Positions 94-24,113 of a stretch of 26,791 bases of DNA are shown one piece after another (within the stretch, counting starts at the first letter, position 1; every line of letters starts with the position of its first letter). The notes under the pieces were generated by a model. It did no database searches. It saw only the letters and a list, made by a program, of their open reading frames with translations, and was not told the DNA's origin. A program made the translations under genes and the position numbers. Source of the DNA: Candidatus Thorarchaeota archaeon (GTDB lineage: Archaea > Asgardarchaeota > Thorarchaeia > Thorarchaeales > Thorarchaeaceae); assembly GCA_046758445.1 (NCBI GenBank), contig JBHIAE010000038.1:1-26791 (forward strand), in the 5' to 3' direction.

Positions 94-1284
94 TCAAGCT
101 GTCCTTCCAGGAACGACACTGGATGCTCTGTCTTGAACATAAATGATGTTTCCAGCCGCATTTATGTCGGCATAAGAGTGTTCATCACATATTGAACAAT
201 AGAAGTACTCTCCGCCTCTTCTCTCCGCAGTGGACCTCTCGTCTTCCACACGAACACCTCTCTCTCCGCAAAAGTGACATGTCTGAGATGTATACCTTGG
301 GTTCACGGTCCACACACTATACGGTGAGTGTCCAAGCGACTCCCGCATGTACCTCACCGTCTCTATGACCTTCCCCCACAGATTGGAGCTCAGGTTCCAC
401 GACAGGTCCCTTGACCCCGCATGAGCCCGGAAGCTCCGAAGGTCCTCGAAGAACATCCTCTTGACCCGATGCTGCTCACAGAACCACACAGTCTTCGAGG
501 CAATGATGCGGGCGATCTCACGGTCGAGTCGCCGTAACTTCCTCCATGTTGCCTCGAGGTGCCTCATTTTCCTGAAGAGGAATCGAGGATACGCCTGCCC
601 AGAATGTTTCTTCTTCCAGTTGTTCTTTCTCCTGTCCACCTCTGACTGTAGGACCGATGCCTTCCGCCTCAGTGTCATCCTCTTTCTCATGAGGGAATCC
701 ACTGATATGAACAGGTCCACAAACTCGGTGTCCTTCTCCACTGAGAGAGCCACTGGCACCCTGAGGCCCCTGTCAGCTCCCGCCTTAGTTGTGTATTCCC
801 TCCCACCAAGGACCTCCGCGCTCACCACTCCATTGGGAGAATGGAATGGAATCTGGAGGATGACTCGATGGCCTCGCAGCAGCAGCCTTGGAGGAGCACT
901 CCGTCTTGAGCTCTTGAGTTGTTGAGTGTCAGAGAATGGGACCACATGAATAAAACACTGCCTGCACAACTCGACAAGATGACCCCTGGTCATATCAACG
1001 AAGTCGAGTTCAGGAAGGAATGGATGTGTGAGTACAACTGTAGTCTTTCCTCGAGTCACACCAAAAGCGGGTTTCGTTTCTGTGTAGGTCCTCCTGCTCT
1101 TGCCAATTCGTTCTACTATCGCACTATCCGGTCTTGGAAACGGATACCGGGTCATACCTAGGAACCGGAGTCTATCTCCTGCGCTGTTAAGGAGCATGTT
1201 GAGCGGACCAATAGTTCCCTCTCGCCATTCATAGACTCTCCTAGCTTCTCTATTTCCATAGAGAGCAGTTGTGTTGAAGACCAT
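94..1284 (-). CDS. tnpB: TnpB/Cas12f-like RNA-guided RuvC nuclease, intact C-terminal part (frame is open from 1350)
   Basis: RuvC-I GADRGLRVPVALS, basic helical segment, RuvC-II FFEDL, VNPRYTSQTCHFC...CSIC zinc ribbon, RuvC-III ADINAAGNI. The D/E/D triad is present. Confidence 0.9.
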   Translation of the reverse strand: MVFNTTALYGNREARRVYEWREGTIGPLNMLLNSAGDRLRFLGMTRYPFPRPDSAIVERIGKSRRTYTETKPAFGVTRGKTTVVLTHPFLPELDFVDMTRGHLVELCRQCFIHVVPFSDTQQLKSSRRSAPPRLLLRGHRVILQIPFHSPNGVVSAEVLGGREYTTKAGADRGLRVPVALSVEKDTEFVDLFISVDSLMRKRMTLRRKASVLQSEVDRRKNNWKKKHSGQAYPRFLFRKMRHLEATWRKLRRLDREIARIIASKTVWFCEQHRVKRMFFEDLRSFRAHAGSRDLSWNLSSNLWGKVIETVRYMRESLGHSPYSVWTVNPRYTSQTCHFCGERGVRVEDERSTAERRGGEYFYCSICDEHSYADINAAGNIIYVQDRASSVVPGRTA

Positions 1285-2987: not shown

Positions 2988-3665
2988 ATGTCCGTGGATA
3001 AGGAGAAGTTACTAGAACAAGTTGACACTCTCAGGAAATCAGTTGGCAAGGCGCTAGATAAGATCGAAAGACTCGAAACGGAGGTCGAGAATGCATCTAG
3101 TGATGCCGAACAGCTTCGAACAGAAAAGCGTGAAGCGGAAGAAAAGGCTTGGGCTGCTGAAGAGAAGGCTCAGAAATCAGAAGAGGAGCTTGAATCAACG
3201 AAGAGCTCTCTTCAGAGGTCCAAGAAGAAACTCAAGACTGCAACTGAAGAGCTCGAAACTTTGAAGAGTGACACAGCAAAAGATGATGAGATTACATCCC
3301 TCAGAGGGGAGCGCGATGCGCTCCAGGCTGAAATGGATGAGATAACTGGCAAACTGGAGAGAGTATCAGAGCTTTACAGAGAAACCGCCGCAGAGAAAGA
3401 GAAGCTCCAAGAGAAGGTCGATGTGAGTGATCTTCTGGCAATATACATCATGTTGATTGAAAACATATTCGGCGGGAAACCTCATGCTCGAGTTCTCTAC
3501 ACTCTACACAACACCAAGGCAGCAATAACCAGAAAGAACATCGAAGCAAGCACAGGCGTCATGCCTACAGCTGTCATTAAGGCTATTCATGATCTCCGCA
3601 ACGCGGAGCTTGTGTCCTTTGACGAGGAGAGTCAGGAAGTCAAACTTATCAAAGAGATAATGTAG
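2988..3665 (+). CDS. Coiled-coil protein with C-terminal winged-helix domain
   Basis: About 145 aa of E/K-rich heptads, then ARVLYTL...ITRKNIEASTGVMPTAVIKAIHDLRNAELVSFD wHTH pattern. Confidence 0.75.
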   Translation: MSVDKEKLLEQVDTLRKSVGKALDKIERLETEVENASSDAEQLRTEKREAEEKAWAAEEKAQKSEEELESTKSSLQRSKKKLKTATEELETLKSDTAKDDEITSLRGERDALQAEMDEITGKLERVSELYRETAAEKEKLQEKVDVSDLLAIYIMLIENIFGGKPHARVLYTLHNTKAAITRKNIEASTGVMPTAVIKAIHDLRNAELVSFDEESQEVKLIKEIM

Positions 3666-4823: not shown

Positions 4824-5213
4824 TTGAATCAGCAAGACGCAAGCAACGTCCCCGGTATGCTAAAGGAGATGCTGAGAAAGCTCTCGCACAACTCTCCAAT
4901 CCTAGGAGCAGCCGTCCTATCAATTGAAGGACTGCCTTTGGTCAGCTACTTCCATGGAAGAGCAGAAGAAGTCGCAGTCGCGGCAATGGTAGCTGGCATT
5001 TACTCGGCAGGGGAGGCTACTGTTCGCGAACTTCGACAAGGTGACTTAAAGTCCATAATCATTGAAGGAGAGATGGGCACAACACTTGCCATTTCCATGC
5101 ATGGTGGCTACCTGCTGGCCGTAACAGCACCGGAGAACGCAAGGCTTGGACTTGTATTCAACGATTCCAAGAGAGTCGCAAGAGAGGCCGCCAAGATACT
5201 TCAGGGCTTTTGA
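4824..5213 (+). CDS. Roadblock/LC7 (MglB/LAMTOR-like) domain protein
   Basis: GAAVLSIEGLPLVS, VAAMVAGI..GE..V.EL..GDL..IIIEGE.G, ARLGLVF signature. Start is TTG 4824 or ATG 4857. Confidence 0.93.
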   Translation: MNQQDASNVPGMLKEMLRKLSHNSPILGAAVLSIEGLPLVSYFHGRAEEVAVAAMVAGIYSAGEATVRELRQGDLKSIIIEGEMGTTLAISMHGGYLLAVTAPENARLGLVFNDSKRVAREAAKILQGF

Positions 5214-6052
5214 TGAGTGAGCTTCCCATGACGGAGGCGTATCCATTCAAACATCACCCCTGCTGGTCAGAGAGAAGAGATGCCCTTTGGGAGCGGATTC
5301 ATCTCCCGGTGGCGAGAATCTGCAACCTGAAGTGCGCGTTTTGTGACCGTGTTTCCGTCTCGAGCTGTCATCTTCCGCGGCCGGGATATGCCAGTCAACT
5401 CATGAAGCCGTCAGCGGCTGTCTCTAGAACAATGGAGCTACTGTCCGAAAGACCTGACTTGCGAATTGTCGCAGTTGCCGGACCAGGCGAGCCTTTGGCG
5501 AATAGTGCGACCTTTGCTACCTTGTCGAGAATTAGGTCAAAACGGCCCGATGTCAGATTCTGTTTGAGCACAAACGGCGTTCTTTTGGAGGAGTATCTTG
5601 TTAAGCTCGTTGATCTAGGTATGGAAACGGTTACTGTCAGCATAAGCACTGTGAAACCTGAAACTGCTGCTGTCATTTATGAGTGGGCTACAATCGATGA
5701 TGGTGTCATGACCGGAATCGAGATGGGAAGGGAGATAGTGAAACGGCAATTGTCGGGAATCTCGCGAGCTTCGCAATCCGGAATTCGCGTCAAATGCAAC
5801 ACCATTCTCATACCGACTGTCAATGACATGGAAATGGCCAAAGTTGCCGAAGCTGTTTCCCAGGTTGGTGCTTCAATTCAGAACATTGTGCCGCTAGTCC
5901 CCTTTGCAGGGATGAGTCACTTGCGTAAGCCATCCCGGGACGAGATTCTCGAAGCACGTCAAAAGGCCTCCGAGTACTGCCGGCAGTTCTCACACTGTAG
6001 GCAGTGTAGAAGTGACGTTGTTGGCGTACCCGGATGTGATGCAATTCTCTAG
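5213..6052 (+). CDS. nifB: NifB-like radical SAM enzyme (stand-alone, no NifX domain)
   Basis: HPC, RIHLPVA, CNLKCAFC, RPG, AGPGEPLAN, CLSTNG, HCRQCRSD. ATG 5213 overlaps the Roadblock TGA (TGATG). Confidence 0.8.
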   Translation: MSELPMTEAYPFKHHPCWSERRDALWERIHLPVARICNLKCAFCDRVSVSSCHLPRPGYASQLMKPSAAVSRTMELLSERPDLRIVAVAGPGEPLANSATFATLSRIRSKRPDVRFCLSTNGVLLEEYLVKLVDLGMETVTVSISTVKPETAAVIYEWATIDDGVMTGIEMGREIVKRQLSGISRASQSGIRVKCNTILIPTVNDMEMAKVAEAVSQVGASIQNIVPLVPFAGMSHLRKPSRDEILEARQKASEYCRQFSHCRQCRSDVVGVPGCDAIL

Positions 6053-6876
6053 GCGGCATCAAGCATGCCCAGACAACCAACCTCTACTAGTTTGTTTATC
6101 AGAAACCAAAGGGCGTTCCGATCCAAAGGGAGAGACTCCAGTATTTCTTCTATCTCCTTGTGACCGTCAAAGCTGAGAACAAGGGCATCAATCGGCGTTC
6201 CATATTGAGCTTTCAATCTATCTAAGTGGACACTATCACAATCTTGTCGAACAAGAATATCCCTCTCACTTAGGCGACGCCTGAAGTCTATCCAACGGTA
6301 CTTGTACAGGGTTGAAATGGCCGCTATCACTTCGTCTTCAGGAAGTCCGATGAGGTCGAGAATCTCAGCAACGGTTCTTTTCCCGTTAATGAAAGCCTCT
6401 ACCTGTTCCAACTTCTTGTCAACATCACCAACTCGGAACCCAATCCTGTGTCCGCTCTTCTTCCGAAATGGTACAAGCTCCAAGTCGACATCGGAAAATG
6501 GGAACTCCTTGATCACGTTGAGCGCAAAGTCCCTAAACACTCTCACGTCTCCTTCGAAGTGGCGCAATCTCCTCCCATATTCTGATTCCACCTGCGTGAG
6601 AATATTCTTCAGTTTGTCACGGTAAGGTACTTCATCTGGCACAGGATCAACGACTAGAAGGATGAGCACGTTTTCTCCGACCTCGATAAGGATGTCATAG
6701 GCTTGCTTCTTGATGGTACGAATGGGGGTCTTTGCAAATATGATCACCGCGGTGACAAAACCAGCAATCAGGTCTGGGTCGACCGTGAGTTCGGCATAAG
6801 GAATGTTAAGCACAGACTCCCCTCCCTCCATCCGTATGAGAGACAGATATCTGACTTTCGACACGTCAACCGACAT
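6049..6876 (-). CDS. Longin domain + tandem winged-helix protein (NPRL2/NPRL3-like architecture), paralog B
   Basis: Longin pattern DPDLIAGFVTAV...ESEY..L..FEGD...F..F; repeats FINGKRTVAEI and FDGHKEIEEI. SD GGAGTGA at 6883-6889 favours ATG 6876. Confidence 0.72.
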   Translation of the reverse strand: MSVDVSKVRYLSLIRMEGGESVLNIPYAELTVDPDLIAGFVTAVIIFAKTPIRTIKKQAYDILIEVGENVLILLVVDPVPDEVPYRDKLKNILTQVESEYGRRLRHFEGDVRVFRDFALNVIKEFPFSDVDLELVPFRKKSGHRIGFRVGDVDKKLEQVEAFINGKRTVAEILDLIGLPEDEVIAAISTLYKYRWIDFRRRLSERDILVRQDCDSVHLDRLKAQYGTPIDALVLSFDGHKEIEEILESLPLDRNALWFLINKLVEVGCLGMLDAA

Positions 6877-6949
6877 TGTCAATCACTCCTCCAGTTCGCA
6901 AATACCTGTTGTCGAAGCTGAGAATGGAACCATAACGGACTCTATGCAT

Positions 6950-7804
6950 TCAAGACCCACCTGCCTTATGGAACCCCAATACGCCAGCATCAATCAGATT
7001 CTTCGCGACAGTTCTAACTGCTTCCATATTATAAGGAAGCACTTCACACACCTGCTGCAACGTCTTTGTCCCGTCGCACAACTCTACAAGCTTCGTCAGC
7101 TGATCACCATATACGCCGGCCAGAAGTTTCGGAGGTTCCATCACTTTCACTAGGATACTAGTGTCATGCAGCCGCTGGCTTAATGTTATCCATTTGTAGC
7201 GGTCAAGCATGGACAAGAGTGCTATGACTTCGCTGTCGGGAATTCCGCACTGTTGAATTATCTCTGAGATTGTGCGTTTTCCATTGATGTAACCAGCAAT
7301 CATCTGCAACTTCTTGTCAGTTTTGCCGACACTCCACGGGATGGTCGAGTGATGGTCTGGTGCGGCTTCAGACTTGGTGACCATTCTGGGAACAAGCTCC
7401 TCATCAAGATGCCTGTATGGATACACCTCCAATATGTGGAGAGCAAATTCGCGAAAGGGGCGGATATCACCTCTCCAGCTCTTCAGCTGGGTTTCGTATC
7501 CTGATTCGAACTTCTCTATGATCTGTGTCAAGGCCTCCCTATACTGGTTGTCATCCTCCACTTTGTCAATTATGAGTAGCCCAACGACGTAGTCACCCTC
7601 CTCAATTACGACTACGTAACCCTCCTTGGTGAATGTCTTGAGCTGCCTGTTCTCAAAGATGATAATGGCAAGAACGAAGCTGGCTACAAGGTCTGGGTCA
7701 ACTGTCATTTCTCTGTACGGGATACCTATTATTGGCTCTCCACCCTCCCGTCTGACCAAGGAGAGATATCTGACCTTTGCTTCAGAATCGGTCGGTTCGC
7801 TCAT
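6950..7804 (-). CDS. Longin domain + tandem winged-helix protein (NPRL2/NPRL3-like architecture), paralog A
   Basis: Colinear with paralog B (KVRYLSL.R.EGGE, TVDPDL, GD.R.FR.FAL, ELVP, DKKL, INGKRT..EI); second repeat CDGTKTLQQV. Confidence 0.72.
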   Translation of the reverse strand: MSEPTDSEAKVRYLSLVRREGGEPIIGIPYREMTVDPDLVASFVLAIIIFENRQLKTFTKEGYVVVIEEGDYVVGLLIIDKVEDDNQYREALTQIIEKFESGYETQLKSWRGDIRPFREFALHILEVYPYRHLDEELVPRMVTKSEAAPDHHSTIPWSVGKTDKKLQMIAGYINGKRTISEIIQQCGIPDSEVIALLSMLDRYKWITLSQRLHDTSILVKVMEPPKLLAGVYGDQLTKLVELCDGTKTLQQVCEVLPYNMEAVRTVAKNLIDAGVLGFHKAGGS

Positions 7805-7832: not shown

Positions 7833-7838
7833 ATATAA
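7833..7838 (-). promoter_or_regulatory. Putative TATA box (TTATAT) of the longin pair
   Basis: About 29 nt upstream of ATG 7804. Confidence 0.5.
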
Positions 7839-7850
7839 CTTGTCTGAACA

Positions 7851-8744
7851 TTATGTGAAATCTAGAATTCCAGTCTGTGAAATCACGCTGATGTCAGCGT
7901 CCTCATCAATCGTGTAGCCAATGAGATCATTCAGATTAGCTACTGAGAAGGACTTCTCAATCCGAGTCACTAAAAGAGGCCCTTTCATCGATACTACAGT
8001 ACCTAACAACTGGAGGCCGTCTAGCTGCGTTCCTCGAGAGCGCCACAAGTGAGGCTCTGCGGTCAACTCGTTCATTCCATAGAATCGAGAGAGGTCTACG
8101 AGAGTCATCTCGTGTGATATCTCGTGCCTGTCAACTGAATCAAGAAAGCCTTGCGCTATTGACTGAGCCTCTTCTGCACGTAGCTGCTTTAGGAGGAGTG
8201 ATGTTTTCCTTTCAGTGCGCACTTGCCTAGTGACTCTTGGACTCCTGCTTAGAGCATACTCGAGTTGCCTTGCCTTCCTGCCGTCTGTCACTTCAGCTAT
8301 CATGATTCCAAAGTCTGCACCCTGCTCAACCCATCTTGTGACAAGCCTGCGCTGGCTTGAAACACCTACCTTCAGTGTCCTATCATTGAAGATGGCTAGG
8401 TAGACTGCGTAGTTTGTTTCACTGCAGCGCTTAACCCGATCCTCTGTCGCATTGCACTCTCTGCCGTCACAGCGTATGCAAGGGTCCATTACGTCCATGG
8501 CTCTACAAGGACCACATCGTCGCTTGCCATGGTCAACAATGGCTTTCTCAGGACACTTGCTGCGGCGGCCCGTGGATTGTACGCTACCTATACATCTCCG
8601 AGGACCTCTAATTGTCCAGCCAATTGCTTTCCCGGGACAGAGCCTCACGAACCGAGGCTCATCTGAATTCTTGGCCCATCCAACCAGACCGGGTTCATAG
8701 TTCTCCGAGTCCTGAGTTCTCCATTGAACATCGAACAAATGCAT
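7851..8744 (-). CDS. DUF2797 domain-containing, cysteine-rich protein
   Basis: RRCIG..CP..RCGPC..CIRCDG.C, VYLA...LKVGVS...RWVEQGA...LE. ATG 8744 with upstream GAGGT is preferred over the overlapping 8795 start. Confidence 0.8.
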   Translation of the reverse strand: MHLFDVQWRTQDSENYEPGLVGWAKNSDEPRFVRLCPGKAIGWTIRGPRRCIGSVQSTGRRSKCPEKAIVDHGKRRCGPCRAMDVMDPCIRCDGRECNATEDRVKRCSETNYAVYLAIFNDRTLKVGVSSQRRLVTRWVEQGADFGIMIAEVTDGRKARQLEYALSRSPRVTRQVRTERKTSLLLKQLRAEEAQSIAQGFLDSVDRHEISHEMTLVDLSRFYGMNELTAEPHLWRSRGTQLDGLQLLGTVVSMKGPLLVTRIEKSFSVANLNDLIGYTIDEDADISVISQTGILDFT

Positions 8745-8755
8745 CTGCAAAGACC

Positions 8756-9802
8756 TCAGTACAATGATATCCGGGATGTTCCAGTCCCCATCCACCTGAC
8801 GCCTTCGATATTCAAATCAGCGTCACACTTGGGACAGCGCCCATTCGCATTCAAGTGGTTCTTCTTGAGATAGACAGAGAATCGTTCTACCGCTCTTTGA
8901 CCACATTCTGGGCAGTAGGTGTTCTCATAATCATGACCAGCGACGTTCCCGGAGTAGACAAAAGTCAGTCCGGCGTCCCTTGCTATGTCAATGTGTTTCT
9001 CTAGGGTTGACGCTGGTGTTCGCGGCAAGTTGGTGACCTTGAACGTTGGTGAGAAGGCGATTATGTGAAGAGGGATTCTCGGGCCGAGGTTCTCTACCGT
9101 CCATTCAGCCAAATGTCTGGTGTCTTCTTCATGGTCACCGATCTCCGGAATAATCAGATTAGTGATCTCAATGAAGATGCCTCTTTCTTTCATCCGAAGG
9201 AGAGCGCTGAAGATTGGCTCCACCTTGGGAACGCTCATGTATTTTTGGCTGAACTCCTTGTTGGCACTCCCCTTGAGGTTCACTGAGGCCGCATCGAGGT
9301 AGGGGGATATGTAATCAATAGCTTCAGGAGTCATGTAGCCGTTTGTTACAAACGTGTTGAACATTCCACGCTCGTTTGCAATCCGCGCAGTGTCATATGC
9401 TATTTCCATGAAGATTGTAGGTTCAGTATAGGTGTAGGTCATACCTTGGCAGTTGTACTTCTCAGCCAGATTGACAATCTCTTCCGGAAGCAGAGTCTGG
9501 CCAACAGGTTTCTCGCGGTGAGAAGAGTGATAGTTCAAGCAGAAATCACAGCGGAAGTTGCACGAAGATGTACTGATTGAGAATGTGCTCGAGCCTGGGG
9601 CGAAATGGAACAGGGGCTTCTTCTCAATAGGGTCAGCCGCCATTCCGTCAAGAAGACCGTATACACTGGTGTAGAGCTTGCCATCCTTTACCAGTCTGAC
9701 TCTGCAGAAACCGCTTTCACCCTCATGTACAACACATCGCCTAGCACAGAGGTCGCAACGAACGCCCCGTTTCAACGTCGAGTATAGAACTGCTTCCTTC
9801 AT
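8756..9802 (-). CDS. amrS: AmmeMemoRadiSam system radical SAM enzyme (PFL-activase-like)
   Basis: VRCDLCARRC...GFCRVR, DPIEKKPLFHF.PG, CNFRCDFC, YTYTEP, VTNGY, ENTYCPECG. Confidence 0.92.
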   Translation of the reverse strand: MKEAVLYSTLKRGVRCDLCARRCVVHEGESGFCRVRLVKDGKLYTSVYGLLDGMAADPIEKKPLFHFAPGSSTFSISTSSCNFRCDFCLNYHSSHREKPVGQTLLPEEIVNLAEKYNCQGMTYTYTEPTIFMEIAYDTARIANERGMFNTFVTNGYMTPEAIDYISPYLDAASVNLKGSANKEFSQKYMSVPKVEPIFSALLRMKERGIFIEITNLIIPEIGDHEEDTRHLAEWTVENLGPRIPLHIIAFSPTFKVTNLPRTPASTLEKHIDIARDAGLTFVYSGNVAGHDYENTYCPECGQRAVERFSVYLKKNHLNANGRCPKCDADLNIEGVRWMGTGTSRISLY

Positions 9803-9920: not shown

Positions 9921-11372
9921 TTACATCTCAATCTTCTCTCGTGCCAGAACCACTGTCTGACCATCATCTTTGACATTGACAAGTCCCAGCTTCTGATAGT
10001 CTTCAATCCATTTGCCCACAGTCGCAGGAGAAACCCCAAGAGATCTTGCGATTTCCCTTACCGACATCTCCCGGTGTTCTTCGACCATCATGAAGGCTTT
10101 GGTCTTCTCTGTTATGTCCATTAGATCGAGGTAACCCTCAAGCTTCTGTTCCGTAAAGGCCAGTTTGGTGAGTGTGCTTTTGTGGTCATTTGTGAGCCGT
10201 TCAAGAGACGCAGATGCTCGTTCCAAATCACTCTTGACACGTTCTAGCTCCCGGGTTTGGTCTCCTGACTCATAGGATCTGAGTCTGGCCCTGAGATCAT
10301 CAACCTCCAATATCTCTTCACGACTCTTCTCAATGTCTGCCTCTAGTTGGCCAATCTGGGTCTTGAGATCGCCAATTTCAATGTCCTTCTTTGCCACAAG
10401 CTCTCTTTGTACCCCGGCCTTTGATTCAGCCTCATCGGCTCTACGTTCAGTATCATTGACCTTCTCAGTCAGAAGATCTCTGGCGGCTTCGAGCGACTTC
10501 ACATTCTGTCGAAGCTCGGCAAGTGCAGTCTTGTCAACTTGTGGTGCTGCTTTCAAACTGGTGACTGTTTCCTCAAGACCCTCTTCCCGAAACTTGGCCT
10601 GTTTTAGGTCCTCTTGAAGCTCAACTACTCGCGCTTCTCGGTTCTGCAACTTCTCCTCAGCCATCTTGAGGTCACGGCTCAGTTCTTCAGTCTGCCTCTC
10701 CAGTTCCTTGACTCTCTTAGTGACCTCCTCAGGCGTTGCTTCTTTTGGCTTCATGAGTAGCTCTCTAGCCAGGAACTCTACTTCTGTGGTCGCTCGCTGA
10801 GTGAAGTCGTCAACAGTCGTCTTTAGTGTCGTTAGTTCTTCATAGGTCGTCTTCATCGCCATCTTCAACCCTTCAGTGATGTCGCGGATCTTATCCATGA
10901 CGGGGGCTGACATTCCAGTGGTGAGAGTTTCTTCTACCTTCTCAAATTCCTCGTTGACAATAGCTCTCACCTGGCTATCCACATATTCGGCTTGAAGGTT
11001 TGTTCTAGCACGACGCCTGCTCTTGCCAACAATCGTAGTTCTCATGTTAACTAGGTTGCCCTTTAGTCCGACCAAGAATGATAAGACGACAGGTACAAGG
11101 TCGCGCTCCACCCTGTCCACAGTGTTCTCCGCTGTGCTCATGTTTCCCTCTAACAACACTAGACTGTCCCTTAGTCGCTCGGCACTGCGTTCGATTTCCA
11201 TCCTTCGTCGAACCTGCTCTGCCGATTCAACCATGAACACATCGGTCGTCAGTCGACCAGAGTCGATGAGCTCCTGCTTGAGCTCATCGTCAACACCCAA
11301 TTCCTCCAAGAGCTCATCCACAACGCGCGCTCGATCGGTTCCGGACGGCTCTTTGTCTGGTTCTTTACTCAT
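9921..11372 (-). CDS. Long coiled-coil protein with C-terminal winged-helix domain
   Basis: Extensive heptad repeats; C-terminal MSVREIARSLGVSPATVGKWIEDYQKLGLV HTH; no Walker motifs. Confidence 0.78.
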   Translation of the reverse strand: MSKEPDKEPSGTDRARVVDELLEELGVDDELKQELIDSGRLTTDVFMVESAEQVRRRMEIERSAERLRDSLVLLEGNMSTAENTVDRVERDLVPVVLSFLVGLKGNLVNMRTTIVGKSRRRARTNLQAEYVDSQVRAIVNEEFEKVEETLTTGMSAPVMDKIRDITEGLKMAMKTTYEELTTLKTTVDDFTQRATTEVEFLARELLMKPKEATPEEVTKRVKELERQTEELSRDLKMAEEKLQNREARVVELQEDLKQAKFREEGLEETVTSLKAAPQVDKTALAELRQNVKSLEAARDLLTEKVNDTERRADEAESKAGVQRELVAKKDIEIGDLKTQIGQLEADIEKSREEILEVDDLRARLRSYESGDQTRELERVKSDLERASASLERLTNDHKSTLTKLAFTEQKLEGYLDLMDITEKTKAFMMVEEHREMSVREIARSLGVSPATVGKWIEDYQKLGLVNVKDDGQTVVLAREKIEM

Positions 11373-14184: not shown

Positions 14185-14643
14185 CTATTCTAGGCTGGCA
14201 AGAAGCTTCAGAATGAGTTTGTGAGCTCGAGGTGCATCTGATACGAATGGGGTGAATGTTCGACCCCTAGCCTCAGATATGCACTGAGGAAGCTTTGCCA
14301 GATCTCTGCACCAGACGAGATGGCCCCGCTTCTCCATCTCTCCAATGAGCTGAGCTTGGTGTCCCTCCATGAGTGTAGGGTTCTCAACTGTCACCAAGCG
14401 ACGTCCCATCTTGACACATTCAAGAGTCGTGGCTGCTCCACCTGTGCTGACTATCACTTCTGCCTTCTCGTACAACTTGCTCATGGACTTGATGAATCGA
14501 AAGTACCGAAAGTGTTGCGGTATATATGACCCACAGCCAATCTGGGCAAGGACTTTGTCCCGAATTACGCCGTCACGAACAAGGCGATCAAACTCGACAA
14601 TTAGAGGGTCGAAATGTGCAGTGCCAACTGTCAAGAGAATCAC
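14185..14643 (-). CDS. alg13: Alg13-like UDP-GlcNAc transferase catalytic subunit (GT28 C-terminal / PssE-like)
   Basis: LTVGT..FD.L, AQIG, VENPTLMEGHQAQL. GTG 14643 overlaps the upstream TGA and is preceded by GGAGGT. Confidence 0.85.
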   Translation of the reverse strand: MILLTVGTAHFDPLIVEFDRLVRDGVIRDKVLAQIGCGSYIPQHFRYFRFIKSMSKLYEKAEVIVSTGGAATTLECVKMGRRLVTVENPTLMEGHQAQLIGEMEKRGHLVWCRDLAKLPQCISEARGRTFTPFVSDAPRAHKLILKLLASLE

Positions 14644-15143
14644 AGCAGTTGACCTCCGTAGATAACGCCGGGTATGCGCGAAACAAGTGATTCCCATTGA
14701 ACGAGAAAGAGATCAGTCTTTCCAAGAATGATTCTCCCAGTCAAGGAGAGTGACTCAACGCTGGCCATGTTCTCGATATAGACTGTCCTGACTCCCGTAA
14801 TGCGAGCCGAATAGAAAATGGGTACAGTCATTCCGGTCCCGCAACTGACGACAACTTTTGGCCGAAACGCTGCGAAGTAGAACAAAGAGAGGAAGAGGGT
14901 CATGAGAGCTCTAAGAAAGGACATTATTCTGGAGTCCTGAGGCAGTAGTCTTGGTGCAAGGACAGGGACTTTGCGTCCTGGGATTCTTATTCTTCGCGGA
15001 GTGAGACGATCCAGAAGCCCAATCAGATAGATGTAGTCAAACGTGGGTCCCAGTAAGTCGACTAAGGCGAGAGCTTCTGAAGTGTGACCTCCTCTTCCCA
15101 AGACAACTGCAACACTTGGCAAATTTATCCACTGAACTGACAT
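14640..15143 (-). CDS. alg14: Alg14-like UDP-GlcNAc transferase subunit (PssD-like)
   Basis: VVLGRGGHTSE, RP.VVVSCGTG..VP, VYIE..A.V..LSLTGRI, FLVQW. Start ATG 15143 or TTG 15122, not 15227. Confidence 0.87.
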   Translation of the reverse strand: MSVQWINLPSVAVVLGRGGHTSEALALVDLLGPTFDYIYLIGLLDRLTPRRIRIPGRKVPVLAPRLLPQDSRIMSFLRALMTLFLSLFYFAAFRPKVVVSCGTGMTVPIFYSARITGVRTVYIENMASVESLSLTGRIILGKTDLFLVQWESLVSRIPGVIYGGQLL

Positions 15144-15401
15144 TCTTGTTCGATGCCACATAAAGGGTTCTCTGGGAAATGTACCTCTGGTGGAGAATCG
15201 CGGAACAGAATAAGGATCTGTTGGCACATGTGTTGCCGCTCGTGAGCCAAGTAGTCCGGCTTGCCAGAGTTCAGGATATGGACTGAAGAGGAGGCTTGCT
15301 CAGAGTGTCGGCCAAGTCATTTCTTTCTTCTAACAGACTCTCACAGGTTTGCTAGCAACAATCTATACTCCTCCAAGCTAGGCTGTCTAGGATTATGACT
15401 G

Positions 15402-15427
15402 CCTTCCTCAAACCTCAACGAGGAAGG
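15402..15427. other. Perfect 8-bp stem-loop, possible terminator or processing hairpin
   Basis: ccttcctc (15402-15409) / gaggaagg (15420-15427), downstream of the deacetylase gene. Confidence 0.35.
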
Positions 15428-15502
15428 GACAATCAAATCTGCCAGTGATTGTGCTCAATTCCAAAAGGTATTGTGTGGCAGTCTTCATTACGATCCTGGA
15501 CT

Positions 15503-16171
15503 CTAGCGGTCACGCTGCGAGCTTGTATTCCAAGTACCCTTGGCAAGCATGAAGGCCTCTGCAAAACTAGTGTTGACATAAACTCCATCATGCTTCAAGC
15601 TGGCCCAGAAACGGTCAGGGTTGAACCAGGTGCCACGAAGTTTCATCTGAGTCTTATACTCGGAGAGCGCCTTGATCTTGGTATCGGCCTCCTCCTCGGA
15701 GAGTGGAATGTAAAGGTTGGGATTGAAGTCCTTACAGGTCCCCAGGATGGGATATTGGAGTAGCGAAACATGGTTCCTTGTGAAAGCTCTCACAGCCTCT
15801 TCGGCCACGGTCCTATGGTCTTGATGAATATCGCCGGGATACGGAGCCAAGACCAGATCCAGCTGTGGATCGTTTCTATAGGGATACATAAGGTCCAGAA
15901 TCTCCTGACGAGACTTCTGGAGATGTTTATTCTCGAAGTCGTGATAAATGATTCTCGAAGCACCTAGGAAACTCGCCGCTTTGCGGTCCTCCTTGGCGAG
16001 CTGTCCGTTCGGAAACTCAGTTCCAATAAGAGAGTCGCCGCAAGTTGTGAACACCATATAGTCAATGTGCGCACCGTGTTTCGCTAGCTTGTAGATGAAG
16101 CCACCAGCTCCCAAGATAGCGTCGTCCGTATGGGGTGAAACAACAAGTGCCTTTTTTACACTGACAAACAT
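15503..16171 (-). CDS. PIG-L/LmbE family N-deacetylase
   Basis: SPHTDD..LGAGG, D.HQDH, KIKAL..Y.TQ, AEAF. ATG 16171 likely; GTG 16204 possible. Confidence 0.9.
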   Translation of the reverse strand: MFVSVKKALVVSPHTDDAILGAGGFIYKLAKHGAHIDYMVFTTCGDSLIGTEFPNGQLAKEDRKAASFLGASRIIYHDFENKHLQKSRQEILDLMYPYRNDPQLDLVLAPYPGDIHQDHRTVAEEAVRAFTRNHVSLLQYPILGTCKDFNPNLYIPLSEEEADTKIKALSEYKTQMKLRGTWFNPDRFWASLKHDGVYVNTSFAEAFMLAKGTWNTSSQRDR

Positions 16172-16546
16172 GATGACATCAACTTCCGTTTCAGCAGCGG
16201 CCACGTATTGATACCGTTAATAGCGTTTCTGTTTCTGCTCTCTACCTCTGGCTCCTTCAACACCGGCGGCAAAATCACATCAAGACCGGCTTCAACATAC
16301 TTTGCGGCAGTCGAATGGACTCTCTTTCCTGAACTCGTCCCATTACTGTCAGCAATAGGTCTTTGGTGGTATCAAGGAACTTTCGATGAAACAGAACTCA
16401 GCGCCCCCAAGTCTTCACCACATGGGAAAGTGATAATGATTGAAACCGGAAGATTGTGGTTGACGGAGCAGACAGCGCTTGCGTGAACGTAGACACATTG
16501 GTTTCACCACATTCAAGAGCAGACGTAGGGAGCTGCTCAATCAATG

Positions 16547-17482
16547 CTATGAATAACGTCCTCTTGTTTTGAGAAGATCATAGACAACCCATATCCAGGA
16601 CTTGCCATAACCATAGAACTTCAAGACGTCGGCATCATCACATCTCCAAGTTCCTTTCATGCGTTCGTGAAGATAACCCTGTAGCATCGCAGTGCCATGT
16701 CTCCTAAGAAAGACCCTCCTGAGTGATCTCAGCAAAACTCCCAAGAATGGCCTTCCGATGAAGTAGTTCAGTTGACCCTGATAGAACATGCCTCTTTCTG
16801 TGCTTGAGAACGCAGGAGTGTCTTGTCGTATTGGGATGCGCCAAATCTTCAAGTCATACCCCTCTCGCAGCGTCCTGATATTGAGAAAAGTGTCTGGTGA
16901 GAGATCCCAATATCTCTCAATTCTGCGAACTATCTCCCATCGCACAACCTTACAGCCACCCACCGGCATTCCGGCCTCGCTCAGAGTCTCCTCTCCCACA
17001 ACCGTTCCAACACATGCTCCAATCTTGGGACTATTCTCGAGTAGCCAGATCATCCGGGCAAAGTAGTTTGGACAGGGCTCTGTATCAACGTCTTGGATTG
17101 TGAAGTACTGAATGCCTATGGAATCCAGTCGATCAATGAGCCGGGGCATCACGGCCGTGTAGGCACGGCCGATGGTGTTGAGATTCCCCTTCTTCTTGGG
17201 AGGCATTCTTTCGAGCCACACCTCAATTTCGGGATAGTTCTCAGCAATTCGGAGTATCTCTTTTGCCGTATCGTCAGTGGAACCGTCATCTATCCATACC
17301 CAGACTCTAGGAGGTTTGGTCTGGCTGACAGCTCTCTTGAAAGCTGCTTCTATGTGATCACGCTCATTCCAAACATTCGTAAACTGAACATACGGTGCGT
17401 CTGTTTCAGCCGGACTGTGGCATGCATCTCTGCAAAAATCGCAATGCAAATGGTAGGGAAAGGCGTTATCCTCGTCTTGCAC
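16547..17482 (-). CDS. Glycosyltransferase family 2 (GT-A)
   Basis: WNE..HI, WIDDGSTDDT, DVD (DxD) motif. Confidence 0.88.
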   Translation of the reverse strand: MQDEDNAFPYHLHCDFCRDACHSPAETDAPYVQFTNVWNERDHIEAAFKRAVSQTKPPRVWVWIDDGSTDDTAKEILRIAENYPEIEVWLERMPPKKKGNLNTIGRAYTAVMPRLIDRLDSIGIQYFTIQDVDTEPCPNYFARMIWLLENSPKIGACVGTVVGEETLSEAGMPVGGCKVVRWEIVRRIERYWDLSPDTFLNIRTLREGYDLKIWRIPIRQDTPAFSSTERGMFYQGQLNYFIGRPFLGVLLRSLRRVFLRRHGTAMLQGYLHERMKGTWRCDDADVLKFYGYGKSWIWVVYDLLKTRGRYS

Positions 17483-17575
17483 GGAAATGGGTCCTCCCTA
17501 TACTCGAGTTCCACTCGGGACTATAGCGTCCTCAAATATAGATGTCGCTCTTCCAGTGTAGAGTGGGAGATTAGC

Positions 17576-17581
17576 TTATAA
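17576..17581 (+). promoter_or_regulatory. TATA box (TTATAA), probably leaderless transcript
   Basis: About 25 nt upstream of ATG 17606; no Shine-Dalgarno at the usual spacing. Confidence 0.5.
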
Positions 17582-17605
17582 GGACTGCAACGAGGCCACG
17601 CATTG

Positions 17606-18592
17606 ATGAAGATTCTGCATATCTGTGATGGTGGGCTTCCTGACCCCAGAGTGGAGAGAATGGCACTGACAATGAAGAAAGAGGGGCATGAACTATCATT
17701 CATAGGCGGAAAGGAAACGAGGAGCCAGAATCTTTCAGTCTTCTCTCACACGAGCTCGGTTTCAATTGGCAGTGGGCCTAGACTTGCCCATGACCCGAGG
17801 ATAAGATCACGATGGGTAAGAGCAATCGAAAAAGCAAATCCGGATATTGTTCATGCCCATGATGTGCTGGTTGGCCACTTTATGCTGCACACCGATATCC
17901 CCGCCATCTTCGATGACCACGAGAACCTGAGTGCACAACGGTTTGCGTATATGTCAAGATCATTCATCCGAAGGAATGCAGCACGTCTACTTCTGAGGAA
18001 GATCCCTATTTGGGAAAGGCAGATGGCGGAACGCTATCCTGTGCTGACTGTTAGTGAAGGCATTGCCAACTTCTACCGGAATTACACGAACGATGTGAAT
18101 GTCCTAATGAACGTCCCATCGCTGCCAGAAGTGGAATGGTTAGAGAGTCCAAAGGTCAGAGAAGGGTGCGTCTTTATAGGAAGTGACTTCTTATTGTCCA
18201 GATTTCATCCCGCTCGAGATATGACCGGGCTTCAAGAGCTCATCGATTTCGACATTGTGACGGGGCTCCCGCATAGAGAAATGATGCGGTTTCTTGCTGG
18301 ACATAAGATAGGACTCACACCGTACAGACCACATCCGTTCCAGTTGGTCTGCAATCCAAACAAGAACTATGAGTACTTGCATGCTGGGCTTCAAGTTGTA
18401 TTGCAGAGAAACCTAGCTCATCTCTTCAAGAACAATCCGTACGTCTACTCGTTCAGAAACTATGATGACATTAGAAACGTCATAGACTCTGTTCAGGATG
18501 TGGATCACAGTGCCATTATGGCTCATTCTCGGCGCAATTATATCTGGGAAAACCAAGAGGACATTATCAGAGAGGCATACAAAAGGGCTTGA
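17606..18592 (+). CDS. GT-B glycosyltransferase (GT4-like, compact C-terminal domain)
   Basis: MKILHI, DPRVE..A.T, PDIVHAHD, DDHE, PNKNYEYLHAGL, YIWE. Confidence 0.82.
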   Translation: MKILHICDGGLPDPRVERMALTMKKEGHELSFIGGKETRSQNLSVFSHTSSVSIGSGPRLAHDPRIRSRWVRAIEKANPDIVHAHDVLVGHFMLHTDIPAIFDDHENLSAQRFAYMSRSFIRRNAARLLLRKIPIWERQMAERYPVLTVSEGIANFYRNYTNDVNVLMNVPSLPEVEWLESPKVREGCVFIGSDFLLSRFHPARDMTGLQELIDFDIVTGLPHREMMRFLAGHKIGLTPYRPHPFQLVCNPNKNYEYLHAGLQVVLQRNLAHLFKNNPYVYSFRNYDDIRNVIDSVQDVDHSAIMAHSRRNYIWENQEDIIREAYKRA

Positions 18593-18619
18593 TGCCTGAC
18601 TGCAAAACCGAAGCGTATC

Positions 18620-19756
18620 TTAGCCACCTAAGTTGTAGTAATCCACATAGGAGAGTTCTCTCCGATCAGTCGGGATAGCAATCTCGCCTGACTCAATGAT
18701 AGGAGGTATCCTCTTAGCCGCATTCCCATCTCCATATACAGACGGATCATTCGAGAGCTTCAACCCATACATCCGGTTACAGTTGTGTACAATCCGTTCA
18801 GGCTCAAGCGCTGTCAGAGTGCTTGCTCCTGCCTCTAGAGTTTCCACCCATTCAGTCCGCTCCTGAAGCGAAACAATGGGAATGTTCAGAAGATAACACT
18901 CTTTCTGAATGCCCCCAGAGTCACTAATCACAAGCTTGGATGCGGCGACGAGGCTCATGAACTCGTCATAGGAAAGAGGGTCACAGATGTGAATGTGCGA
19001 ATCATCCAACTTCAATGAAAACTCCTCAAGGCGTTTCCGAGCCCGGGGATGGACTGGGAAGATGATTGGGAAATCTACTGAGTTGAGACCCGTGACTATG
19101 TTAGCAAGTGTGTTTGCACGATCTACGCTCTCTCGTCTGTGCATGGTCAAGACGGCGTATTCCTTCTCCCTGGTGCCAATCTTTGAGAACACTTGCTCGC
19201 GATATGACACATCAGTATACTTAGGCAAGCGGTTCTTCAAAACGTCATACATCGTGTCGCCAATGTGATACACCTTTCCTTGAACCTGCTCAGCATTCAG
19301 ATTGTCGACAGCGATCTTTGTGGGAGCGAAAAGAGCGGATGCTCCATGGTCAATCAGCCTTCTGTTGACCTCTTCTTGGAAGCTCAGGTCAAATCTCCTC
19401 AAGCCAGATTCCAAGTGGCAAACAGCTATCTCCATCTTGAATCCGACCAGGGCAGCTCCGAGGGCTGAAGTGGTGTCCCCTGGTACAATCATGAGGTCTG
19501 GGCGATTCATTTTGTAATGTGAAGCCAATCGCTGCATGATTGTGTATACTTGATAAGAGTAGTCACCGGACCCGACCTCCAAGTCCATTGGGGAATCAAG
19601 TTCGAATCCATCTATGAATGCCCCAGCAAGCTCGTAGTCATAATGCTGGCCAGTATGGATGAACTCGTGCTCGATTCCGAACTCCGCCAATGCACTTAGA
19701 ACAGGGGCAGTCTTGATTATCTGTGGACGAGTACCTGTGACTAATGAAACGAACAT
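18620..19756 (-). CDS. wecB: UDP-N-acetylglucosamine 2-epimerase (non-hydrolysing)
   Basis: GTRPQIIK, HTGQHYD, PGDT, HLESGLR, EEVNR, HRRE, SDSGGIQKE, TEW.E, YGDG.A. Confidence 0.95.
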   Translation of the reverse strand: MFVSLVTGTRPQIIKTAPVLSALAEFGIEHEFIHTGQHYDYELAGAFIDGFELDSPMDLEVGSGDYSYQVYTIMQRLASHYKMNRPDLMIVPGDTTSALGAALVGFKMEIAVCHLESGLRRFDLSFQEEVNRRLIDHGASALFAPTKIAVDNLNAEQVQGKVYHIGDTMYDVLKNRLPKYTDVSYREQVFSKIGTREKEYAVLTMHRRESVDRANTLANIVTGLNSVDFPIIFPVHPRARKRLEEFSLKLDDSHIHICDPLSYDEFMSLVAASKLVISDSGGIQKECYLLNIPIVSLQERTEWVETLEAGASTLTALEPERIVHNCNRMYGLKLSNDPSVYGDGNAAKRIPPIIESGEIAIPTDRRELSYVDYYNLGG

Positions 19757-20341
19757 GTAAATCCTCCAATCATGCTGAAGAGCTCTCGGAAAGACTTCAG
19801 ATTAAAGTATTTGCCAACGTTCTCAGGCAGACATCACTCCTTGCTAGGTGAGCCTTCAAAGATCTCCTTGCCTCGAGATTTGATTTGCACATTGTCCAAA
19901 ATCAGAATTGGAACAAAGGCAATTCCTACCAGAGTGATTCTACAGAGGACTTCATTCTGGAAACTGGCAAGCAATCCAAGAAGAAAGGACCCTAAGCATT
20001 CGATAAGTCAGGGTCATCGCCAGTGATAGCTCTAGATGTCCACTGCATTTGACATGTCGTCCTTTGTCTGCATTAGCCCCTTCTGGATCATGTCGTAAGA
20101 ATCGAACGCTAGTGAAGGAACGTTAAGCTAAGGCATTTGCCAAGAATAAGTCTGCTGCTCCGTTGCCCTCGACCAAACAAAGGAGATATTGCCCACTTGC
20201 TTCTGACGGAACTCTAAGTTGTTGTCATAAGACCTCTTCTGATGATTGTCGTTGATCGCGCATTCTCGCTGTCGGACCTCGAATACACAGTCCAAGTCCG
20301 AATCACTGGATGCTAGATTCGATGCAAATCGTATCTAACAC

Positions 20342-20932
20342 TCAGCATTCAAGCTCCTTCTTTGCAGCAACGAACAGAACCTTACAGAACCTTATCGGTA
20401 TTGTAATCCTTAGATAGTTATTCGGAATGAGCCGCGATAGGTATCTATCCAGTCTCACTTGAGACACTCCCAGTCCCTTCCTCCTTAGAATCTCATAGCC
20501 TGCATCTCTTATGGTGTCAACAAGCTGTTCGCTTGTGAAGCTGTGTCTATGGTGATCAATTGAGTTCACAGGGGAAGAAATGAAGAGAAGACCTCTTGGA
20601 ACAGTGACTCTGTTGCATTCGACAAGTACTTCGATCGGAGAAACAACGTGTTTCATAACTGACTCAAGAACAACCGATTTGAAGGTGCAACTAAGGAAGG
20701 GGATCCTTTCACCCACCGCTCTAACATCAACTGGCCCCCGTGGATATGGATCAAGCGACACTGTTCTTCCACTTGATCCACCAGACCCAATGTCCAATGA
20801 GGGACGAGGAAGTTCTCCAATGAACTTCAGCCATTCTTCATACATTATACGCCATTGATTTCTAAGATGCTGACTCACATCAAAAGTATGTCCCAATTCA
20901 CGTGCGTAGGAATCCTCTCTATCGCCGTTCAT
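20342..20932 (-). CDS. Class I SAM-dependent methyltransferase (type 11-like)
   Basis: LDIGSG, GERIPF...F.SV, VMKHV..P, RV..P.G.LFISSP. Confidence 0.82.
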   Translation of the reverse strand: MNGDREDSYARELGHTFDVSQHLRNQWRIMYEEWLKFIGELPRPSLDIGSGGSSGRTVSLDPYPRGPVDVRAVGERIPFLSCTFKSVVLESVMKHVVSPIEVLVECNRVTVPRGLLFISSPVNSIDHHRHSFTSEQLVDTIRDAGYEILRRKGLGVSQVRLDRYLSRLIPNNYLRITIPIRFCKVLFVAAKKELEC

Positions 20933-21052
20933 TATTGCGCCTTTCAGGACATAGATTAGGAGAGAATAAACTTAACTCGTTCAAGTGGGTGCCTCCACAC
21001 AGGAGTTGTAGCCTAGTCCTCGGACGAAAAGCAAGAATGAGGGAGGCTCTGA

Positions 21053-22234
21053 GTGAAGATACTATTGTTGTCCGATCCGAATAGCATTCATACAAGAAAC
21101 TGGTTCGACGGCCTTGTATCTAGCAATATCGTGACAGACGTGCTGTACGTGAGAGGATGGGGACACTCATGCATACATGGCAATTCTATTCCTGAAGAGC
21201 ATTTGATCCTTCTTGATAAGCCAGGCAAAACCGCCCTCATAAAAGGTACCGTGAAACATGGAGAGTTTGGCAAGCTAATCAGAGATCTCAAGGCAAGAAC
21301 GACCCTTCACCAATCGCTTGTTCTATTGGGGAGAGAGGTTGGGAGAATAGCAGAGGAGCGCGGCTACGATATGATTCACGCCCATGGCGCGGCAACATCT
21401 GCACTGTTGGCGTTCTCCAGTAGGTTCCGCCCATACTCCGTATCCACATGGGGTTCCGACATCTATTTGATGCCTGATACATATTCCTATCTAAGACCGC
21501 TTATCTCAGAAGCACTGTCAAATGCTGCATTTGTCCATGTTGAGAGCCAGATATCCGCTCAGAGAGTCGAAGAACTGACTGGAACAAAAAGACACGATTT
21601 TCTGGTCAGTACTTGGGGAGTTGATACAAGTCGATTCACACCAGGCCTTCCAATTGGGAGTACAAGACGGGATCTGAGCATCCCACATGGGAGAATGATT
21701 CTGAGCCTCAGATCGCTTGAGCCTTTGTACAGGATTGATTCAATCATCCGTGCGTTCTCAATGATCGCGGATACTGTATCTGATGCCATACTTGTAATTG
21801 CTAGCTCAGGACAATTGAGAAACGAGTTAGAGGATCTTGCAGGTAATCTAGGAATTCATGATAGGGTGGTATTTACGGGATTCATTGAGTCAGAGCAAAA
21901 GCGCATCCTCCTATCAAACTCCTATGCTTATGTTCAGTTCCCAAGTTCAGACGGGGTTGCTTTGGCGATGATGGAAGCAATGAGCTCAGGATTGCCATTG
22001 ATATCATCAAATGTGGGAGAAACATCCGTTCTCATCGAGAGTGAGTCAAATGGTCTGCTGGTCGAGGATGATAGTTCTGAAGCTCTGGCGCAAGCTATGA
22101 CTCAGATTCTTAATGATGACCTCCTCAGAAACAGGATGTCACAAAGATCACGGCGATTGGCCCTCGAGAAGCACAATAGATCGAATTTCTTCAGGAAGTT
22201 CGTGACCAAGGCAGAAACAACTTTGAAAACCTAG
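21053..22234 (+). CDS. Glycosyltransferase family 4
   Basis: IHAH, WGSDIY, GVDT..F, V.FTGF, MMEAMSSGLP.I.S.VG. Confidence 0.92.
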   Translation: MKILLLSDPNSIHTRNWFDGLVSSNIVTDVLYVRGWGHSCIHGNSIPEEHLILLDKPGKTALIKGTVKHGEFGKLIRDLKARTTLHQSLVLLGREVGRIAEERGYDMIHAHGAATSALLAFSSRFRPYSVSTWGSDIYLMPDTYSYLRPLISEALSNAAFVHVESQISAQRVEELTGTKRHDFLVSTWGVDTSRFTPGLPIGSTRRDLSIPHGRMILSLRSLEPLYRIDSIIRAFSMIADTVSDAILVIASSGQLRNELEDLAGNLGIHDRVVFTGFIESEQKRILLSNSYAYVQFPSSDGVALAMMEAMSSGLPLISSNVGETSVLIESESNGLLVEDDSSEALAQAMTQILNDDLLRNRMSQRSRRLALEKHNRSNFFRKFVTKAETTLKT

Positions 22235-22236
22235 TT

Positions 22237-23388: not shown

Positions 23389-24104
23389 ATGAAGAGCCCC
23401 TCTGTGTCACTATCAACCCCATTTTCTATATCACTTATCGCCTTCATGTAGTCATCGAGCCGACCAATATCACGCCAAGATTCACTGAACTCATATCCCA
23501 CAACGTTCATTCCCTTACTAATTGCCACATCTATTAGATCTGTCATCTGAAAGATCCCATCATTAGGGATAAGAGGAAGAACGCTAGGCGAAACTGCGTA
23601 GATTCCTGAGTTGACAAGAAAACTGAAACGTGGCTTCTCTTCAATCGATGATACTGAATCATCATCCTGGATTTCGACGATTCCATAAGCTATACTCCTT
23701 TCAAACTTCTTTAGGGCAATTGTCAAATCAGCACCGCGGTTCTTATGAAAACTGAGCAAATCCTTGAAACGCAAATTCGTCAGGAGATCTGCATTCATGA
23801 CAACAAAAGGCGATGTCTGATGATCCTTGAGCTCTGAGAGTGGACCAGCAGTTCCACGTGGATTTTTTTCCTCGAAATACTCGATTTCTACACCGAATGT
23901 TGCACCAGTACCAAAATAGCTTCGAATCATCTCTGATTTATAATTCGTCATGAGATAGAATGTCTTGAACCCCTGGTCCCTCATCTTTGTAAGAGTGACT
24001 TCTAGTATTGGCTTGGACCCAAGGGGAAGAAGTGGCTTGGGTACTGCATATGTTAGCGGTCGAAGTCGCGTTCCTTCTCCGCCACAAAGTATAGCTGCAT
24101 CCAT
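23385..24104 (-). CDS. Sugar-phosphate nucleotidyltransferase
   Basis: ILCGGEGTRLRPLT...PKPL, GTAG, MNAD, EEKP, WRDIG. Confidence 0.93.
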   Translation of the reverse strand: MDAAILCGGEGTRLRPLTYAVPKPLLPLGSKPILEVTLTKMRDQGFKTFYLMTNYKSEMIRSYFGTGATFGVEIEYFEEKNPRGTAGPLSELKDHQTSPFVVMNADLLTNLRFKDLLSFHKNRGADLTIALKKFERSIAYGIVEIQDDDSVSSIEEKPRFSFLVNSGIYAVSPSVLPLIPNDGIFQMTDLIDVAISKGMNVVGYEFSESWRDIGRLDDYMKAISDIENGVDSDTEGLFI

Positions 24105-24113
24105 CTTCTGTCA

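Follow-up and report, generated by a model that had tools for sequence, protein, structure and literature searches.

Tandem NPRL2-like genes in a family of Thorarchaeota as a candidate heterodimer for the control of a small GTPase

Introduction

Two adjacent genes, here called A and B, raise the question of whether archaeal proteins of the NPRL type pair with one another, and of whether such proteins can switch a small GTPase with no arginine finger. The genes lie in a stretch of 26,791 nucleotides from a Candidatus Thorarchaeota archaeon (assembly GCA_046758445.1, contig JBHIAE010000038.1, positions 1 to 26,791), hereafter the window. NPRL2 and NPRL3 (Npr2 and Npr3 in yeast) are the longin subunits of GATOR1/SEACIT, the GTPase-activating protein (GAP) of RagA/Gtr1. 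An initial annotation of the locus, made from the sequence alone, had taken A and B for a duplicated heterodimer related to these subunits. Our analysis indicates that they are NPRL2-like in fold, and we hold, with a little better than even confidence, that they form an Asgard NPRL2-like tandem pair, transcribed together and acting as a heterodimer that regulates an Arf/Rag-like small GTPase or gives it a platform.

The family itself has been known since 2020. Liu et al. 2020 (bioRxiv 10.1101/2020.10.19.343400) describe an NPRL2-like family of the same domain organisation "in most Thor MAGs" (metagenome-assembled genomes), and later work uses "NPRL2-like longin domain" as an asCOG category. 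The main text of Liu et al. 2020/2021 makes no mention of a tandem A-B pair, of its lineage-specific origin, of a missing arginine or of a fusion to a GTPase. What we add is incremental, namely a fixed local tandem pair, the loss of A in one genus, the lack of an arginine finger and the GTPase fusion.

The A and B proteins have the fold of NPRL2 and NPRL3

The products of A and B are 41% identical across their full length (E 5e-71) and are both encoded on the minus strand, which bears out their initial description as co-oriented paralogues. An AlphaFold2 model of A, built on a 20-sequence alignment (predicted local distance difference test score, pLDDT, 82.9; predicted template modelling score, pTM, 0.76), shows strands at residues 11-18 and 26-29, a helix at 37-51, strands at 57-60, 63-69 and 73-80, and helices at 86-108 and 115-127; this is a longin domain of order beta-beta-alpha-beta-beta-beta-alpha-alpha. 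It is followed by a strand (137-141) that carries a conserved ELVP, and then by winged helices at 160-220 and 226-278. The model thus agrees with the architecture first read from the sequence, a longin domain, an ELVP linker and two winged helices.

Foldseek searches of the PDB with the whole model of A retrieved NPRL2, NPRL3 and Npr2 chains of GATOR1/SEACIT as all of the 13 best matches, in alignments that span the full length (E 1.5e-7 to 3e-5), with longin-only proteins ranking next. In structural alignments with VIA-align, the longin domain of A matched Sec22b (Z 15.1, 119 residues aligned, root-mean-square deviation 2.3), VAMP7 (Z 14.0) and Ykt6 (Z 13.8). NPRL2 and NPRL3 share with A this N-terminal domain, which aligns to longins at Z 13-15. 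Rigid alignment of the whole model left NPRL2 outside the top 50, with SNARE and adaptin longins in the lead; since this ranking is dominated by the longin domain, we modelled the C-terminal half (residues 136-284) separately, at a pLDDT of 88.1.

With this half, the top seven Foldseek matches were NPRL2/Npr2 chains (E 1.7e-4 to 1.6e-3, template modelling scores 0.55-0.63), followed by NPRL3. VIA-align placed it on residues 172-347 of NPRL2 (Z 10.0-10.9), 242-490 of Npr2 (Z 10.4) and 258-411 of NPRL3 (Z 9.6). A structural scan of 48,161 PDB representative chains, independent of Foldseek, ranked human NPRL2 first (8fw5_B, Z 11.1, 139 of 149 residues aligned), yeast Npr2 second (Z 10.4) and FAM91A1 third (Z 8.8); every remaining match covered one winged helix, of at most 73 residues. 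Because NPRL2 and Npr2 align over the tandem unit and generic winged-helix proteins over one repeat (at most 75 residues), the modelled C-terminal module of A is specifically NPRL2/3-like at the fold level, and not the generic winged-helix repeat that would have spoken against the initial annotation. A longin domain joined to a tandem winged-helix module is otherwise known only from NPRL2/NPRL3 (Npr2/Npr3).

Distribution and probable origin of the pair

Almost all orthologues of A (more than 230, all annotated as hypothetical proteins) and of B (more than 280, with the same annotation) come from Thorarchaeota MAGs. We surveyed 301 Asgard genomes. In the Thorarchaeota family to which the window belongs, 74 of the 76 genomes contained a match, and the pair was adjacent and co-oriented among the matches listed. 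Gene order was alike in 12 of 13 loci fetched from nine genera of the family: a coiled-coil gene, an unknown gene, a Roadblock gene and a NifB-like radical SAM gene converge on B, A, a DUF2797 gene and an AmmeMemoRadiSam-type radical SAM gene. In one locus (L042, G152:C4, 10066-10907 and neighbours) the A, NifB-like and transglutaminase genes were each recovered by tblastn in two pieces, which suggests frameshifts or assembly errors and not a true split of A.

Outside the family, in a genome of a sister family from the same order, the syntenic site holds just one gene, which is 28-30% identical to A and to B. Within the order, the three genomes of one genus (g4; 96-99% complete) keep only the B type, A having been lost together with the DUF2797 gene. 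A phylogenetic tree recovered A and B as monophyletic clades (support 100/99), and some 30 positions are fixed differently between them. The genome also encodes a third paralogue (G000:C55:7680-8324, L064), conserved in the genus, of 214 residues with a longin domain and one winged helix, which is 36% identical to B; its extended genome-search match contains one TGA.

Since the pair is confined to one Thorarchaeota family and a single gene occupies the syntenic site in the sister family, the tandem duplication probably took place in the ancestor of that family, in parallel to the split between NPRL2 and NPRL3. The initial annotation had allowed for a duplication either ancestral or parallel to GATOR1; the second option stands, and we rejected the first on the same grounds. 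The tree yields clean A and B clades, and leaves their relation to the single-copy and third-paralogue clades unresolved.

Links to small GTPases

The genome of the window also encodes a 646-residue protein (G000:C28:5607-7547; L063, 5607-7547, also L004, 58-1998) in which an N-terminal extension of about 120 residues and an Arf/Roc/Ras-type GTPase domain (residues 121-259) precede a longin plus two-winged-helix module like that of A and B (360-642, E 1e-22). Proteins of like size and layout occur in four other genomes of the order; such fusions are present in the sister family and in genus g4, and among the representative proteins (P0254 and P0263). In another Asgard family, the best homologue from outside Thorarchaeota (L056, genome G007) is encoded immediately after a gene whose product is this same extended Arf-like GTPase, and in a third (L062) two Ras/Arf-type GTPase genes come after an A/B-like gene, at a spacing of 12-14 nucleotides. 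Loose proximity to GTPase genes means little, because Asgard genomes are rich in them; fusions and tight operons are stronger evidence. In the window's own genome, four proteins matched the Gtr1_RagA profile, all of them better described as Arf/Ras-like and none encoded in the window. The fusion offers a candidate GTPase partner for A and B.

Sequence and catalytic features

Several results weigh against reading A and B as an NPRL2-like heterodimer, and they begin with the sequence. The Pfam profiles NPR2 (PF06218) and NPR3 (PF03666), which the initial annotation had named for a check, matched neither A nor B, even at E 10. Searching the PDB sequences with a profile yielded nothing, and phmmer nothing relevant. 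When A was compared with vertebrate NPRL2 by hhalign, residues 163-212 aligned with NPRL2 190-239 at E 0.016 and a probability of only 2.8%, both profiles being shallow. At the level of structure, the modelled longin domain of A, taken alone, is closer to SNARE and adaptin longins than to NPRL2 in VIA-align, and is not by itself specifically NPRL2-like. Catalytic residues count here too: neither A nor B has an arginine at the turn equivalent to NPRL2 R78 in any of 234 sequences, and neither keeps a strict GP motif, which is replaced by an invariant G22-E23-P24 in A and by G-E-S in B. Furthermore, no GTPase gene lies within the window, and DEPDC5/Iml1 was not found in the window's own genome, which is 92.7% complete (PF12257, E 1). 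Lastly, the tree does not resolve the order of A, B, the single-copy gene and the third-paralogue clade, so that an exclusive A-B sisterhood is unproven, and the loss of A from the near-complete genomes of genus g4 means that the heterodimer cannot be obligatory everywhere.

Other sequence signals stay below threshold and fall, like the hhalign match, at the matching place in the module. The HTH_NPRL3 profile (PF24064) matched A at E 0.042-0.055, below the cut-off, and 9 of the 20 family members likewise, with a best E of 2.5e-5; in a six-frame search of the 3.25-Mb genome its only match was 7196-7300, the first winged helix of A (E 0.042). BLASTP aligned A with NPRL2 at E 0.17. A and B share with residues 190-206 of NPRL2 the motif D-x3-Q-x-I-x2-Y-I-[DN]-G-x-R-x-I; the NPRL2 segment that the initial annotation had quoted proved exact and corresponds to residues 190-233 of the human protein (chain 6ces_N). 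Scans of the genome with the Pfam NPR2, NPR3 and IML1 profiles found nothing. Altogether, the evidence for a likeness to NPRL2/3 is weak at this level.

An exhaustive profile search of 1.84 billion representatives retrieved 344 relatives, and no Pfam NPR2 protein was found among those tested. Ten relatives of 404-509 residues were considered as eukaryotic NPRL2 and rejected, as two carry V4R domains and the others no significant domain. Many others (P0300, P0304, P0315, P0320 and P0331 among them) are proteins of 1,100-2,800 residues with a domain near the C-terminus that matches the longin domain of A and B.

An alignment of ten vertebrate NPRL2 sequences showed that G20-P21 and R78 are conserved. 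The R78 loop, which precedes the fifth longin strand, was equated with the beta4-beta5 turn of A and B by strand order and not by superposition; this tight turn (EEGD in A and EVGE in B) lies within IEEGDYV and IEVGENV, respectively, and its glycine is invariant in the 234 sequences. The initial annotation had already remarked on the lack of an arginine in these loops (EEGDYV and EVGENV), and the wider sample agrees with it. In both proteins the most conserved part is the loop before the second longin strand, R-x-E-G-G-E followed by proline in A and by serine in B. This asymmetry is reminiscent, at sequence level, of the GP motif, which is reported for NPRL2 and not for NPRL3 (PMC12290439). 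Other arginines are invariant in both paralogues (R12, R18, R89, R115 and R118), in A only (R31 and R53) or in B only (R55, R58 and R150).

A model for the pair and its alternatives

We propose that the duplication, which most likely happened in an ancestor of one Thorarchaeota family, gave rise to two proteins that may form a pseudo-symmetric heterodimer by way of their longin and C-terminal domains, on the pattern of NPRL2-NPRL3, FLCN-FNIP and C9orf72-SMCR8. The dimer would then be a platform for, or a regulator of, an Arf/Rag-like small GTPase. If it stimulates GTP hydrolysis, it would do so without a classical arginine finger, because neither paralogue has an arginine at the R78 position, and could rely on an MglB-like mechanism or on another conserved arginine; A-B might instead be an exchange factor or a scaffold. 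A bolder version, which we consider tentative, sees in A-B an independently evolved, finger-less heterodimer of the NPRL type with control over an Arf/Rag-like GTPase, for which the type fused to a paralogous module in this genome is the most plausible choice. On this view evolution would have arrived twice at the paired-paralogue design of GATOR1, and the ancestral NPRL module would have been a finger-less platform for a GTPase, like MglB, with the arginine a later addition.

A further reading, rather unlikely in our view, grants A and B the NPRL2-like fold and has each of them act alone or as a homodimer, perhaps with different GTPase partners, the tandem being a mere recent duplication. This would accommodate the three g4 genomes with only a B-type gene at the locus, the single copy in the sister-family genome, and the presence elsewhere in the genome of both the shorter third paralogue and the GTPase-fused one. 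It fits less well with the two copies, each in a clean clade, standing side by side in an unchanged order throughout nearly the whole family, and some 30 positions are fixed differently in A and B, as would be expected of complementary subunits; besides, the eukaryotic relatives with this fold are known to work as paralogue heterodimers throughout.

That A and B are DNA-binding transcription regulators, whose winged helices bind DNA and whose longin domain is a sensor or dimerisation domain, seems improbable. The winged helices of many regulators do align singly with those of A (Z 5.5-6.7), and there are weak Pfam matches to IclR, MarR-type, TrmB and other helix-turn-helix (HTH) families, but these matches involve one winged helix of about 50 residues, compared with a tandem of 139 residues and a higher Z for NPRL2/Npr2. 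Moreover, the winged helices of NPRL2/3 are known as protein-interaction domains, and the fusion and adjacency to GTPases point to GTPase signalling.

Finally, we regard as very improbable that the first winged helix and its leading strand form an RRE/PqqD-like peptide-binding element, in which case A and B would be adaptors serving the radical SAM enzymes nearby or DUF2797. In its favour, the RRE domains of MccB (Z 8.0), PbtF (Z 7.4) and TigE can be aligned to the first 75 residues of the model of the C-terminal half (Z 7.0-8.0; about 70 residues for MccB and PbtF), TIGR03859 (PqqD) matches at E 9.7e-5, and the genes immediately upstream are AmmeMemoRadiSam and DUF2797, as they are in the sister family; in one genus DUF2797 has disappeared along with A. 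Against it, the RRE matches fall short of those to NPRL2 in strength and cover half of the module, the PqqD match spans just 24 residues at 22 bits (cut-off 46), the adjacency carries little weight at this depth because a 17-kb block is syntenic family-wide, and the more distant homologues adjoin GTPase genes and not radical SAM genes.

Gene structure and genomic neighbourhood

The coordinates of A and B and of their main features are given in Table 1. The open reading frame of B as listed starts at a TTG (6049-6882, 277 residues). Its most likely start is the ATG two codons further on, where the B orthologues begin with MxxDVSKVRY.

Table 1. Position of genes A and B, of the domains of A and of putative expression signals in the window
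Feature	Position	Strand	Description	Basis
Gene A	6950-7804	minus	284 aa; NPRL2/3-like, longin plus tandem winged helices; first of the pair	Open reading frame
Gene B	6049-6876	minus	275 aa from the most likely start, ATG at 6876; architecture as A	
Longin domain of A	7415-7780	minus	Residues 9-130	Secondary-structure order; VIA-align
C-terminal module of A	6965-7399	minus	Residues 136-280; ELVP strand and pair of winged helices, corresponding to the C-terminal domain of NPRL2	
TATA-like box TTATAT	7833-7838	minus	About 33 nucleotides before the start codon of A; putative promoter for both genes	Sequence
Shine-Dalgarno-like motif GGAGG	6888-6892	minus	In the 67-nucleotide A-B spacer, before the B start	Sequence

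A comparable A/T-rich box was found at an equal distance before A in 11 of 12 orthologous loci; comparison of these 12 loci showed no recurrent TATA-like box before B, which in most of them is preceded by a GGAGG-like or G-rich motif. The single TATA box that the initial annotation had placed ahead of the pair is thus a conserved feature of the locus. With a TATA-like box before A, and with a Shine-Dalgarno-like motif and no box before B, it is plausible that both genes are transcribed as one unit from a single promoter.

On the other side of B, the NifB-like radical SAM gene (5210-6052, plus strand; TIGR01290, 229.9 bits, below the cut-off of 343.65) overlaps with its start the stop of the Roadblock/LC7 gene (4824-5213, plus strand). 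It has no nitrogenase genes nearby and is absent from the syntenic site of the sister-family genome (L050). Conservation within the order extends to the convergent Roadblock gene, but equally to all of the 17-kb block. A BLASTP search with the Roadblock protein of the window detected no such gene near seven more distant homologues of A and B; for both reasons, we rejected it as a functional partner.

Upstream of A, the DUF2797 gene (7851-8795, minus strand) overlaps by 40 nucleotides an AmmeMemoRadiSam-type radical SAM gene (8756-9802, minus strand; TIGR04337, E 2e-89), and the sister family has the two genes too. The block is flanked by two coiled-coil genes that are syntenic across the family (2988-3665, plus strand, and 9921-11372, minus strand); their products show SMC/Rad50-like coiled-coil matches, and the larger one ends in an HTH. 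Towards the start of the window, outside the block conserved in other genomes, lies a TnpB/Cas12f-like gene (94-1284, minus strand; Cas12f1-like TNB domain, E 3e-11). A glycosylation cluster occupies 14185-26506, with Alg13/Alg14-like genes, a PIG-L deacetylase, several glycosyltransferases, a UDP-GlcNAc 2-epimerase, a DegT aminotransferase, a nucleotidyl transferase and a 4,6-dehydratase.

Discussion

Among the closest known counterparts of A and B is the NPRL2-NPRL3 pair, with which they share a longin domain followed by tandem winged helices and the encoding of paralogues as partners. They differ from it in being about 100 residues shorter than NPRL2, in lacking a Pfam NPR2/NPR3 match, an arginine in the R78 loop and a strict GP, and in coming from a genome with no DEPDC5/Iml1 match; their duplication also appears specific to Thorarchaeota and not common to eukaryotes.

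In bacteria, too, proteins of roadblock or longin fold and winged-helix proteins act with a Ras-like GTPase. MglB, the GAP of MglA, supplies no arginine finger, and the actinobacterial conservon comprises a roadblock protein (CvnB), a winged-helix protein (CvnC/DUF742) and a GTPase (CvnD). DUF742 matched the winged helices of two relatives below the cut-off (L056, E 5.5e-6; P0257, E 9.7e-5). The resemblance has its limits, as MglB aligns only to the longin part of A and, unlike in the conservon, A and B carry the longin domain and the winged helices in one chain, which is moreover duplicated. Paralogous longin pairs are GTPase-binding platforms in Mon1-Ccz1, Fuzzy-Inturned and other heterodimeric longin exchange factors as well, and Fuzzy aligns to the longin domain of A (Z 13.6); these are, however, tri-longin proteins without winged helices.

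Among archaeal proteins, A and B agree with the Asgard NPRL2-like family of Liu et al. both in fold and in a distribution almost restricted to Thorarchaeota. Another group of Asgard longins, of the FLCN/SMCR8 type, has likewise been proposed to regulate Arf/Rag-type GTPases, and keeps the GP motif and the arginine finger (PMC12290439). A and B keep neither strictly, and have winged helices in place of the DENN-type C-terminus.

The duplication appears local to one Thorarchaeota family, and so does not date the split between NPRL2 and NPRL3. We know of no Asgard NPRL2-like protein that has been studied at the bench. The two soluble proteins encoded at the locus described here form a compact and well-conserved pair, each about 280 residues long, and with the candidate GTPase partner that the fusion supplies, they can be put to a direct test. 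Few links connect signalling in archaea with the nutrient pathway of Rag and TORC1 in eukaryotes, and the NPRL2-like proteins of Asgard archaea are one of them.

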